The position numbers and the translations under genes were made by a program. Below the pieces are notes generated by a model that was not told the origin of the DNA, searched no databases, and was given only the letters and a program-made list of their open reading frames with translations. Shown here piece after piece: positions 1,848 to 51,788 of a stretch of DNA of 64,000 nucleotides (positions within the stretch are counted from its first letter, which is position 1; each line of letters begins with the position of its first letter). Origin of the DNA: Planctomycetota bacterium (lineage in GTDB: Bacteria; Planctomycetota; GCA-002687715; DRQF01); NCBI GenBank assembly GCA_047639315.1, contig JBLINQ010000008.1, positions 810-64,809 of the forward strand. The letters are read 5' to 3'.

Positions 1848-2861
1848 TTACTTCATCCGGCTCCAGACGTTGGCATACCACATGGCACGTTTAGAAACCT
1901 TGAGCCCTGTCATCTTGCCCACGACTTTCCTCATCTTCAGGTCCATGCCATCTTTCACGCCTTTTTGTGAAGCAATGATGAGCTTGGTGACGGCCTTGTC
2001 GAGCTTGAGTTCGTTCTTACCAACGTAGTCGTCGAACTTGGCTTTGAATGCAGCGCAAGTCGCTTCCCAAGTTGGTTCCCCTTTGCAGCCCTTGGTGAGG
2101 GCTTCGAGGTTCTTTTTAGCTTCGATCCAGCTGCCAGTCGCCATCATATATTTGATCGAAGCGACGTCAGCTTTAAAGCGAAGCTTCAGTTCTTTCTTGG
2201 CCAACTCTAGGTCGGCTTTGACTTCCTCGGTACTTGGCTGGTAAGTCTCGAGAATCTTCTTGGCGTCAAAGAGTAAACCCTTGCCATGCATGAGTGCTCG
2301 TGCCGATGCGATCTCGGGAGCGGCTCCCCATCCGGTCTGCAGTTTCTTGAGTTCGATAGGAATGCGCTTATCGATGAGCTTGCCGACTTCGTTGCGATGA
2401 CCGACGGCGATGATCTTGCCGTCGACTCCAACGAGGGCTGCCATCGGCAACTTCAATGCGTCAGACTTGCCAATCACGAGAGGATTGTCGGCCGTGACCA
2501 TGGCTGTATTCGTTGGAAAGCGCTTCATCATGAAGGCGGCCAAGTCGACGGTCTCTTCTTGCACGTGAGTCAGGACAACAGTGAGTCCTTTCTTACGATA
2601 CTTCTTGTCGATCTTAATGGCATGCGGCACCGCATGCCCGAGGCAAGGCCCTCAGCGGTAGCCCCACATCTCGATAAGAACGGGTCGTCCAACGAAGTGG
2701 TTACGTGATACGTGACCATCTCCATTCATCACGACTTTGCGAAACCGAAACTCTGGCATGCGCTCTCCGGCAACGGCCAAAGTTTGAGCATGGCTCATCG
2801 TTGGCAGCAGGACGAGGAGGGCGATGGCCAATGACAGTCGATTGATACTCATGAATCTCAT
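1848..2861 (-). CDS. Exported TlpA/redoxin-like protein with U-x-x-C motif (predicted selenoprotein, UGA read-through at 2654-2652)
   Basis: Track ORFs 2652..2861 and 1848..2630 are in the same frame. Reading through TGA gives signal peptide...GRPVLIEMWGYR-U-GPCLGHAVPHAIKIDKKYRKKGLTVVLTHVQ, the redoxin beta1-CxxC-helix-beta pattern. A SECIS-like hairpin follows. Start is 2861 or 2852. Confidence 0.85.
2619..2638 (-). promoter_or_regulatory. Candidate bacterial SECIS element
   Basis: Minus strand GGCATGCG-GTGC-CGCATGCC: perfect 8-bp stem, loop starts with GU, stem starts 13 nt and loop 21 nt after the UGA. Confidence 0.7.
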
Positions 2862-25168: not shown

Positions 25169-25458
25169 GATTTATTTCCTTGGGAATCGTTTTGCTGCGA
25201 ATCGTTCTCTTGAAACGACCTAAGAGCGCAGTCAAACGGACTTTCCGTGCTTTTCTTCCCACTGATGCTTCGACAAAGATACTTTCCTAAGTTTAACTTT
25301 TATGAGGTGATCTTTGGCAATCGGGGTGAATTCCGACTGGTCGAGTGGATTCGCACTCGGATGGACGATAAATCTGTATTGAGATTGCAGTGCTGGGGGC
25401 ATCGCCTGTACTCTCGACCCATCACCCCCTGATGATGACTACTCGGAGGAATCGAAGA

Positions 25459-26298
25459 ATGAAGAATTTGGCATTGATTGTCTGCCTCGTTGCCCTTGGC
25501 AGCATGGCAGTCCCAACGACATTATTCAGCCAATGCTGAGGTGCTGGGGGTAAAGCAAAAACCCCTAGCGGCGCTGGACGCGTCGAAACTCCCATTGCAA
25601 AAGAAATGCGTAGCCCTGCTGTGGCAACCGAGCTTGAGATCAATTGGATCGAAGCTCAGTGGCCAACTTCCTGGGATGAGAAGTATGGCGATCAAGCCCT
25701 TCCTCTCAGCGCACTTTCGAAGTTGTCAGACGACAAGAACAAACCTTCTCTCGTCTATGTTGTCCGTGGCAACGAAGAAGAGAAGCAGCTCATCAACGAA
25801 GACAAGATGTTTGGCTCCATTGATGTTGTTCTCGCCAGTCGTTTCTTCCGTTGCTATCGCATTGTTGACAGCGATATCACAGACGAGAAGATTCGCGCGA
25901 AGTATCTGTTGAAGAAGGGCCCCACGGTCATTCTTCTCGATGCCAAGGGCAACGAAATGTTGAAGAACAAGAAGAGCGTTTCGAAGACTTGGGTCTACAG
26001 CAAGCTGAAAAAGCAGTTCTCATATGACTTCGACGGCAAGATGTCGACTCACGTGAAGAAACTCTCCGCTTGGCTCGACGAGCTCGAAAAAGCTGACGAC
26101 AAGAAGGCTGACGCAGAACGTCTTTATCGTACTGCTGCAGACCGTTTCGAAAAACGCGAGACACCTGCTTCGACTCGTTCATTGGCAAAGGCTGAGAAAG
26201 CTTATGCTGACTCGGAAACCACATTTGACAAGATCAAAGAGCGCGGCCCAAAGTTGAGTAGCCCTCAATTGAAGACTCAGAATACTGCAAAGAAGTAG
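25459..26298 (+). CDS. Exported thioredoxin-fold-like protein with N-terminal Cys-Sec (CU) motif (predicted selenoprotein, UGA at 25537-25539)
   Basis: GGAGGA RBS and ATG 25459 give MKNLALIVCLVALGSMAVPTTLFSQC-TGA-GAGGKAKTPSGAGRVETPIAKE, exactly in frame (49 codons) with track ORF 25606..26298, whose own ATG has no RBS or signal peptide. Confidence 0.75.
25543..25577 (+). promoter_or_regulatory. Hairpin(s) immediately 3' of the in-frame UGA (candidate SECIS)
   Basis: GCTGGGGGT-AAAGCAAAA-ACCCCTAGC (9 bp, one G-U) starts 3 nt after the UGA. An alternative CTAGC-GGC-GCTGG hairpin puts a G-led loop 30 nt after the UGA. Confidence 0.45.
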
Positions 26299-50597: not shown

Positions 50598-51500
50598 TTA
50601 AGCGTCTTTCAAACCGATGAGGGTTTCGCGTGCTTCTTCAACAAGGCCAGTTTTCTTGGCTTTGCCCATGAAACGTCCAAGAGCCTTCTTGGCGTCCTTT
50701 GGTTCCATGTTCTTAATTTCATCCAACCGTGTGCGAGCCGAAGCCGTGATGGCGTCTTTCGCTGCGGTGATCTTTGCCTGAAGTGCTTCAGGCAAGTTCT
50801 GGGGCTTAGCAGCAACCTTGTCGATTAACTTGTAGCCTGAGTCCCAATCACCTTTGCTGGCAGAAGCGACGCTGGCGTCGATCGCGCTATTGATCTTGTT
50901 GATCGTCTTGCGCTTGATGCCCTTGCCATGCTCGTCTTTGAGGAGCTTGGTTGCATTCTTGACTTCTTCCATGATGCCCTTGGCATTCACACCTTTGAAG
51001 ATGTGCATACGTTCGAGGTTGTGTGGATTGACCAAGCAAGTGTAAGGGATCTTGCCGGTGTCGTTGTATGTCCCAGCCTTGCTTGAACGCAATTTAGAGA
51101 TCATGTCAAAAGTGAGGTTTGGCCACTTAGCCATGAACTTGACTTTTTCACCGTTAGCATTCTTCTTGGTGTACATGGCTGCTTTAGGATCTTCTTTCTT
51201 GATCCCTTCATCCAGACGACCCAAGGACAGAACCTCAACGGTATTGTCGTTCGCAAACTTGATATATTTCTTATTCTGCAACACGGCAGAATGTGCACCC
51301 CAGCACGGGCCTCAGTAGAAGCCATGGCTGTGCAAAACCATAGGGACGTTCAGTAGCTTGGCTTCTTCGACTGCCGCATCCCAAGTCTGAGCGAACGTCA
51401 CTGTTTCCTTCAACTTTGGCTTTTTCTGAGCCCAAGCATCATCGGAAATGGCAACGAATGTCAGGCTGAGAAGGAGTGCAATTAAGAGACTCCGTTTCAT
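50598..51500 (-). CDS. Exported thioredoxin-fold protein with U-x-x-C motif (predicted selenoprotein, UGA read-through at 51314-51312)
   Basis: Track ORFs 51312..51590 and 50598..51284 are in frame. From ATG 51500: signal peptide...TWDAAVEEAKLLNVPMVLHSHGFY-U-GPCWGAHSAVLQNKKYIKFA (thioredoxin-like 'A..EAK...P......W-CxxC' pattern). A SECIS-like hairpin follows. Confidence 0.85.
51273..51292 (-). promoter_or_regulatory. Candidate bacterial SECIS element
   Basis: Minus strand ATTCTGC-CGTGTT-GCAGAAT: perfect 7-bp stem, GU at loop positions 2-3, loop 26 nt after the UGA. Confidence 0.7.
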
Positions 51501-51788
51501 GCTTCTATTCTCCGTATTCGCGATAATCGCGATCCTAAAACATAGCGCCCTGGGAAACGGTAATTCACGTCTCTGCTCAGGCACCGTCATGGTGTTTTGG
51601 GTGATCTAAATCGATTTCAGAGAAATCCGCAAGATACAGCCCGCTCCCGCCTTACAAACAAATAGGATCAGGCGAACGATTCGATGAATCTGAGAAAACC
51701 TCAGATTTGTTTCGGCTGCGGTGCAAGATGGGGCGGACAAGAGGTTACCATCTGGCCACATCAATTCGGTTTTGGGAGTGTCTTCCGG

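Follow-up and report, generated by a model that had tools for sequence, protein, structure and literature searches.

Selenoproteins with a thioredoxin fold and a selenocysteine (Sec, U) in the first position of a UxxC motif have been described by comparative genomics since the Sargasso Sea survey of 2005, whose families included thioredoxin, peroxiredoxin-like (Prx-like) and DsbA-like proteins as well as a 'thiol-disulfide isomerase-like protein' in the TlpA-like superfamily cd02966 (PMC1088965). A review of 2026 still treats the UxxC thioredoxin-fold families as predicted only and includes, in addition, a UGC-containing TlpA family protein; it makes no mention of Sec in a plain DsbD, and nowhere uses 'planctomycet', 'periplasm' or 'signal peptide' (PMC13188914). 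We examine here a gene from a 64,000-nucleotide stretch of a Planctomycetota genome (assembly GCA_047639315.1, contig JBLINQ010000008.1, positions 810 to 64,809 of the forward strand; hereafter the window) that would encode an exported protein of this class and that is open through a single UGA. Like the published UxxC TlpA-like selenoproteins, beside which it can be set by description only, the predicted protein has a TlpA-type thioredoxin fold with Sec first in UxxC, identified by comparative genomics, and widespread cysteine (Cys) homologues; it adds a helical domain of 160 residues and a predicted signal peptide, neither of them described in those papers, its source is an uncultured order of Planctomycetota, and Sec forms seem to exceed Cys forms within its two-domain family. 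With the Prx-like thiol:disulfide oxidoreductase selenoproteins (UxxC, PF00578) it shares a thioredoxin-like UxxC and a weak Redoxin/AhpC-TSA similarity, but its closest solved relatives are ResA and DsbE, and its two-domain architecture, with predicted export, differs.

The gene and its parts are as follows, in window coordinates:

1848 to 2861, minus strand: predicted selenoprotein gene, complete, 337 codons plus a TAA stop, open through one UGA (translated with TGA as U).
2652 to 2654, minus strand: UGA, predicted to encode selenocysteine at codon 70 and opening the U-G-P-C redox motif (2643 to 2654).
2619 to 2638, minus strand: hairpin resembling a selenocysteine insertion sequence (SECIS), perfect 8-bp stem (2638-2631 with 2626-2619) and loop GUGC (2630-2627).
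2787 to 2861, minus strand: predicted signal peptide of the Sec export pathway type, residues 1-25 (MRFMSINRLSLAIALLVLLPTMSHA, then Q26), judged by eye.
2337 to 2774, minus strand: thioredoxin-fold (TlpA/ResA/DsbE-like) domain, about residues 30-175, from profiles and fold matches.
1851 to 2333, minus strand: all-helical C-terminal domain, residues 177-337, beginning at a conserved GWG, from AlphaFold2 models.

The frame starts at an ATG (2861-2859), ends at the TAA (1850-1848) and contains a sole in-frame TGA (2654-2652), which separates an upstream open reading frame (ORF) of 69 residues (2652 to 2861) from a downstream ORF of 260 residues with a GTG start (1848 to 2630). The two ORFs share one frame, with a gap of seven codons. 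Translation with TGA as U bears out the proposal of the initial annotation that read-through fuses a signal-peptide and redoxin start to GPCLGHAVP...GLTVVLTHVQ; the product has 337 residues (...GRPVLIEMWGYR-U-GPCLGHAVPHAIK...GLTVVLTHVQ). Judged from comparative sequence evidence, we place at roughly 93% the probability that this stretch (2861 to 1848) is a single gene for a genuine selenoprotein.

The conservation of the UGA across relatives carries this reading. TGA occupies the same alignment column in 27 distinct Sec contexts from independent assemblies, the closest of them showing 36-83% identity, and a Cys codon (TGC or TGT) stands at that column in 78 distinct contexts (CGPC or CxxC, e.g. 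WCGPC and WGxHCGPC). Orthologues lacking both Cys and Sec at the site had been regarded at the outset as fatal to the proposal; instead, the orthologues carry TGA, and more distant relatives Cys, at the exact column. Of the 23 species-level genomes in the order, all searched in six frames, 19 contain homologues, most with exactly one in-frame TGA, and at every order locus read the TGA supplies the U of U-G-P-C. Genome and metagenome collections, scanned in turn, contributed further relatives, among them Cys homologues (WGxHCGPC) from Verrucomicrobiota, Planctomycetota and Desulfobacterota. Pairs of closely related Sec and Cys forms, namely the sister sequences L064 and L095 and the tandem paralogues of L065, also support Sec at this site. 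The residues invariant in nine aligned orthologues surround the codon closely, comprising G58, L62, W66 and G67 before the Sec site, U70 itself, and G71, P72, C73, V78, P79, H80 and A81 after it. Among the records of relatives in the order-level group, all are labelled 'Planctomycetota bacterium' except one (L058, G003:C8, CAMARR010000008.1), a metagenome-assembled genome (MAG) doubtfully labelled 'Candidatus Kuenenia stuttgartiensis'.

Gene callers and public databases show only the 260-residue ORF and its equivalents, which favors the alternative that the TGA is a true stop; the locus would then be a pseudogene, the result of an assembly error, or a pair of genes, one for a 69-residue exported peptide and one for a 260-residue protein initiated at the GTG of position 2630. 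Likewise, 5.8 billion predicted proteins, when searched, yielded only truncated relatives of 217-291 residues, plus one distant full-length Cys form (EFWATWCGPC). In the DNA of three relatives, the frame runs upstream through a TGA at the matching column in all three cases; relatives at 61% (same genus), 63% and 36% identity read EFWGFR-U-GPCMG, ELWGFK-U-GPCLA and DWWGIH-U-GPCLG, respectively. Database relatives begin at the equivalent V/M-P-H-A, just past the redox motif, so the whole family has been mis-annotated alike. The GTG at 2630-2628, chosen by the gene caller as the start of the 260-residue ORF, is itself the GUG within the SECIS-like loop. A true stop would have to accommodate the identical TGA in all 27 sequences, the Cys found at this site in homologues, and false start codons that are inconsistent among orthologues (GTG, ATG or none); moreover, the seven codons from TGA to GTG encode the invariant G-P-C, and in structural models neither ORF piece alone yields a complete thioredoxin fold, which only the read-through product does. 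We consider this alternative effectively refuted already and its probability very small.

The genome in question (G000; 5.2 Mb in 280 contigs, 89.6% complete) is equipped to decode UGA as Sec. A tRNA-Sec (65.5 bits; anticodon tca by ARAGORN), selA (507 bits), selB (354 bits) and selD (355 bits) all exceed curated cut-offs. The tRNA-Sec, selD and selA adjoin one another (G000:C111:6305-8928), with selB on a separate contig (C175); selD itself has one in-frame TGA and is probably a Sec-form SelD. A frame that is open under a changed code does not prove Sec, and the insertion of Cys at UGA under selenium scarcity is known in other systems, so that the codon might stand for Cys, Trp or Gly instead, through near-cognate suppression or a reassigned code, with no selenoprotein produced. 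Such decoding is highly improbable in our estimate, given that TGA is not reassigned, since 7 of the window's 37 long ORFs terminate with it, that in-frame TGAs are confined to the redox-Cys column, and that the full selABCD set, a selD with a TGA of its own and a conserved hairpin after the codon are present together.

That hairpin (GGCAUGCG-GUGC-CGCAUGCC; -13.7 kcal/mol as a single hairpin) confirms the description in the initial annotation of a perfect 8-bp stem with a GUGC loop 21 nucleotides from the UGA. Its stem begins at +14, after a spacer of 13 nucleotides, and its loop lies at +22 to +25. Bacterial SECIS elements usually place a G-containing apical loop some 16-37 nucleotides from the UGA, and the window hairpin matches the usual geometry both in the position of its loop and in its G-U. 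The SECIS of Escherichia coli fdhF is similarly a hairpin within the coding sequence after the UGA, with a spacer of about 11-13 nucleotides and an apical G-U about 22-24 nucleotides from the UGA; the window stem differs in being perfect, without a bulged U, and the binding of SelB to it is putative.

Several lines of evidence argue that this structure is more than chance. Against synonymous-codon shuffles, which keep the amino-acid sequence and the codon usage of the gene, the 45 nucleotides past the UGA fold at -18.1 kcal/mol, compared with -9.5 +/- 2.8 (z = -3.07), and none of 300 shuffles is as stable. Across the family, the best single hairpin with its loop 15-32 nucleotides from the codon has a median of -9.1 kcal/mol in Sec members versus -6.2 in Cys members (p = 0.003). 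Covariation, a check that had been proposed at the outset, was assessed in an ungapped alignment of 14 orthologues in the stem register of the window. The hairpin is retained with compensatory changes: four stem pairs vary on both sides (A-U/G-C, U-A/C-G, G-C/U-A and C-G/G-U), and the score of 0.338 is reached by none of 500 shuffles (0.121 +/- 0.028). Slid registers all gave 0.155 or less, so that the window register stands at least twice as high. The compensations entail amino-acid replacements in both arms, G-H-A...P-H-A in some sequences corresponding to G-G-S...P-S-A in others. In addition, six sequences from different genera carry an identical 21-nucleotide GGSVPHA hairpin, with varying third positions in its flanks.

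Other results weigh against this interpretation of the hairpin and are best considered together. Against dinucleotide shuffles of a 71-nucleotide stretch it was not significant (z = -0.97), as expected for GC-rich coding sequence, which is why the synonymous shuffles replaced that null. The GGSVPHA subgroup pairs one nucleotide off the window register; when the register was shifted by one (i+j) over the whole orthologue set no covariation was seen, the shifted pairing fitting that subgroup only. One orthologue (L020) uses another 5' arm. The Cys orthologue L095 (CPNC), sister to the Sec form L064 (UGGC) with identical two-domain architecture, also makes a stable local hairpin; it therefore failed as a natural negative control, and the hairpin alone is not diagnostic of recoding. 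No Rfam family matched in a scan of the window, a result of little weight given how poorly bacterial SECIS elements are modelled. A covariance model (R1) gave scores of 33-63 bits for Sec orthologues and of no more than 16 bits for Cys homologues, a gap that we set aside as structural evidence, since it largely reflects coding-sequence similarity and TGA versus TGC. The initial annotation's description of the hairpin as 'textbook' was thus an overstatement, since local folding comes easily to GC-rich genes such as these and is seen in one Cys orthologue too. It is well supported that a hairpin lies at the right place, which would not by itself prove recoding.

Sec insertion could be real while this 8-bp hairpin is not the SelB element, or not all of it, and is in part a by-product of the V-P-H-A codons and high G+C content. 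Such a view draws on the coincidence of the 3' arm with the conserved P-H-A codons, on the register and 5' arm that vary among subgroups, on the modest family-wide synonymous-shuffle signal (mean z of -0.82 in Sec members and -0.33 in Cys members), and on the foldable Cys orthologue and the sequence-driven covariance scores. It sits poorly with a window hairpin 3 standard deviations beyond synonymous recodings, with compensating replacements in the arms, with the identical hairpin in six genera amid variable third positions, and with the fit to usual SECIS geometry. On balance we think it improbable, and favor the hairpin as the likely recoding signal.

The protein so decoded is, by profile and by predicted fold, a thioredoxin-fold oxidoreductase. 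The HMM (hidden Markov model) search with TGA translated as C that the initial annotation had suggested gave Redoxin and ResA/DsbE-type matches, and the predicted fold agreed. With Cys in the Sec position, Pfam Redoxin aligned to residues 31-152 (E = 4e-5) and NCBIfam ResA matched at E = 8e-11. A profile of nine orthologues found in the PDB a Redoxin domain protein (8e-17), DsbE (3e-11) and ResA (1e-8). The AlphaFold model of the read-through product (predicted local distance difference test, pLDDT, 88.9; predicted template modelling score, pTM, 0.84) adopts the thioredoxin fold between residues 30 and 175, for which the best Foldseek match was DsbE (3gl3; E = 3e-7, target TM-score 0.74), with ResA at a TM-score of about 0.7; peroxiredoxin matches were also returned. 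In the model, U70 lies in the loop between a strand (61-66, VLIEMW, followed by G-Y-R) and a helix (71-91), and is thus placed at the nucleophilic Cys position of the thioredoxin fold, at the N-terminus of helix α1. P139, which is invariant, directly precedes strand 140-144 in the region expected for the cis-proline loop.

Some of these observations temper the assignment. The Pfam score (23.9 bits) falls below the gathering threshold of 26.6, and the ResA score (42 bits) far below the cut-off of 170; the protein is a divergent superfamily member and not ResA itself. We infer export from a signal-peptide-like N-terminus, judged by eye, in which a basic n-region, a hydrophobic core and a small-x-small pattern precede Q26; the same layout is seen by eye in orthologues. 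The N-terminus has no RR motif and no lipobox Cys, and residues 1-25 are disordered in the model (pLDDT below 50). Of the exported Sec oxidoreductase originally proposed, the oxidoreductase stands on the Sec site, the thioredoxin-type fold and the complete Sec machinery, and export remains a by-eye assignment.

DsbD or CcdA maintains enzymes of the ResA, CcmG and TlpA type in the reduced state. The window protein resembles ResA of Bacillus, CcmG/DsbE and TlpA in that these give its best sequence and fold matches and share W-x-x-[C/U]-x-x-C at the N-terminus of helix α1; as a member of this group it would also share their extracytoplasmic location and dependence on DsbD or CcdA for electrons. 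It departs from them in having Sec for Cys, a GPC motif rather than EPC, PTC or VPC, a predicted cleaved signal peptide without a membrane anchor, and the extra helical domain, and its gene is not beside cytochrome c maturation or cox genes. From these sequence comparisons, the protein is most likely an extracytoplasmic thiol-disulfide oxidoreductase, a reductase like ResA, CcmG or TlpA, although we infer the reductase direction and the coupling to DsbD from the family.

Decoding and catalysis might proceed as follows. SelB with Sec-tRNA(Sec) would read UGA-70 as selenocysteine, its recruitment most likely effected by the hairpin at +14 with its G-U-containing loop 22-25 nucleotides past the UGA. 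The product would comprise a presumably cleavable Sec-pathway signal peptide, a TlpA/ResA/DsbE-like domain with U70-G-P-C73 and the 160-residue helical domain. In the periplasm, by analogy with the family, the U70 selenolate would attack a disulfide or another oxidised group on its substrate, C73 would resolve the intermediate to give a selenenylsulfide, and this would be re-reduced by the membrane electron transporter DsbD, which in this genome appears to carry Sec too, within the thioredoxin domain at its C-terminus. If selenium were lacking, translation would halt at codon 70 and leave an inactive 69-residue peptide.

An exported selenoprotein of this kind might instead be something other than a disulfide reductase fed by DsbD, for instance a peroxidase-like scavenger, an oxidase or isomerase, or a protein handling metals or metalloids. 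The Foldseek peroxiredoxin matches and Redoxin as the best Pfam family lend this some credit, as do a helical domain without known function, an uninformative genomic context, and the many family members without a redox motif, which hint that the role of the protein does not in every case depend on catalysis. The ResA, DsbE and TlpA-type reductases nonetheless provide the best sequence and fold matches, the motif is a thioredoxin-type xGPC with a resolving Cys and not the peroxiredoxin T-x-x-C/U, and a DsbD homologue is present in the genome. We hold a non-reductase role to be unlikely, albeit a good deal less so than the alternatives considered above, and retain the thiol-disulfide reductase as the preferred assignment.

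The C-terminal domain distinguishes the protein from the systems to which it is otherwise most similar. Its approximately 160 residues form eight helices, modelled with pLDDT of 92 alone and 95-97 in the full-length model; it had no Pfam match, and among PDB folds none was significant (best E = 1.6, weakly TPR-like proteins). Possibly it binds substrates or partners. A profile of this domain recovered 219 cluster representatives among 1.84 billion proteins, of which the best 150 were sorted by rough length and motif criteria. These 150 included at least 35 ORFs of 240-300 residues that start with V/M-P-x-A right after the active site, which from their sequences would be the signature of an uncalled Sec form, along with 12 full-length members with CxxC, 3 with CxxS or SxxC, and about 50 that are full-length without a redox motif. 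The DNA of two truncated representatives had the in-frame TGA in both cases (FWGTR-U-PGC, on a Tara Oceans contig, and FWGTR-U-GPC). In a tree of 34 full-length members, the Sec, Cys and motif-less forms are interleaved, and the clade with the window gene holds 14 Sec, 4 motif-less and 1 Cys form. Within this two-domain family, the Sec forms thus seem to be more numerous than the Cys forms. The motif-less members, predicted to be exported, redox-dead paralogues that retain the helical domain, include L033, L043, L044 and L047, with sequences such as WDR--ARFGRG, or WGPGSQTC with the second Cys only. One Planctomycetota MAG (L065, JABTUE010000003.1) encodes two paralogues, sisters in the tree, with motifs at 1104 and 2196 on the same strand, about 1.1 kb apart, reading KYWGTR-U-GPCV and KLWGVK-C-GPCL; they may be a pair for selenium-replete and selenium-limited conditions.

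The surroundings of the window gene give no clue to its substrate or function, as it stands alone between a convergent GNAT-domain gene on one side and a divergent prenyltransferase-like gene on the other. One further element lies between the selenoprotein gene and the GNAT gene:

1790 to 1816, both strands: intrinsic-terminator-like hairpin, bidirectional, 11-12 pairs with T-runs on both strands, 31 nucleotides past the stop codon.

Additional selenoprotein candidates occur in the window and elsewhere in the genome. At 50598-51590 (minus strand; TGA at 51314-51312), a frame of 330 codons with a signal peptide and a lysine-rich helical tail forms a second exported candidate (...PMVLHSHGFY-U-GPC-WGAHS...); it resembles the gene studied here around the active site only (BLASTP E = 1e-4) and has no Pfam match. 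A third, at 25390-26298 (plus strand), has 302 codons, no Pfam match and one in-frame TGA (at about 25537) directly after a signal-peptide-like N-terminus (...TLFSQC-U-GAGGKAK...); it may represent either a selenoprotein with a C-U motif or a frame left open by chance. The sole DsbD_TM homologue of the genome (G000:C120:7726-10224, minus strand; 833 codons open) has one TGA, at C120:8055, within its C-terminal thioredoxin-like domain (FVDFTGYT-U-ANC), and most of the order's 23 genomes have a single TGA in the corresponding DsbD region. By-eye picks from crude, noisy six-frame regular-expression scans gave about 20 further in-frame UxxC sites in thioredoxin-fold-like contexts on many contigs, including an HMA/CopZ-like GMT-U-GGC. 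These leads include C33:20479, C23:19899, C166:2413, C38:2548, C38:2962, C146:1055, C23:34120, C66:14389, C27:31746, C148:9112, C19:48526, C30:36291, C131:10505, C1:85132, C43:30812, C16:6854, C63:10295 and C108:372, among which homologues confirmed only that on C33 (L045, FFRWN-U-GPC). Selenoproteins seem to be plentiful in this genome.

A Sec-containing DsbD would fit a selenium-based electron relay, to which the protein studied here may be linked. More broadly, the periplasmic thiol-disulfide network of the order may run largely on selenium, with Sec-DsbD feeding exported UxxC TlpA-like proteins, among them the product of the gene studied here, one of at least four UGPC paralogues in its genome, and with a two-domain family in which Sec and redox-dead forms are common and Cys forms a minority. 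We offer this as a tentative proposal, to which we assign somewhat less than an even chance; if true, the usual ratio of Sec to Cys forms would be reversed in the two-domain family.

UxxC TlpA-like selenoproteins being an established class, the gene implies no new mechanism, and the understanding of Sec decoding and of thioredoxin-fold catalysis is unchanged by it. What is modestly new is a helical domain with no structural match, the seeming surplus of Sec and redox-dead over Cys forms in the two-domain family, and the co-occurrence in one genome of several UGPC paralogues, a Sec-DsbD candidate and about 20 other UxxC candidates. The gene and dozens of its relatives stand in databases only as truncated hypothetical proteins, with a false start within the SECIS loop, and the family is for this reason invisible to counts of selenoproteomes. 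Its recognition adds a well-supported family of selenoproteins, predicted to be exported, to the Planctomycetota, a phylum thinly covered in selenoprotein surveys, and, taken with the DsbD and UxxC candidates, suggests that extracytoplasmic redox chemistry draws heavily on selenium here.

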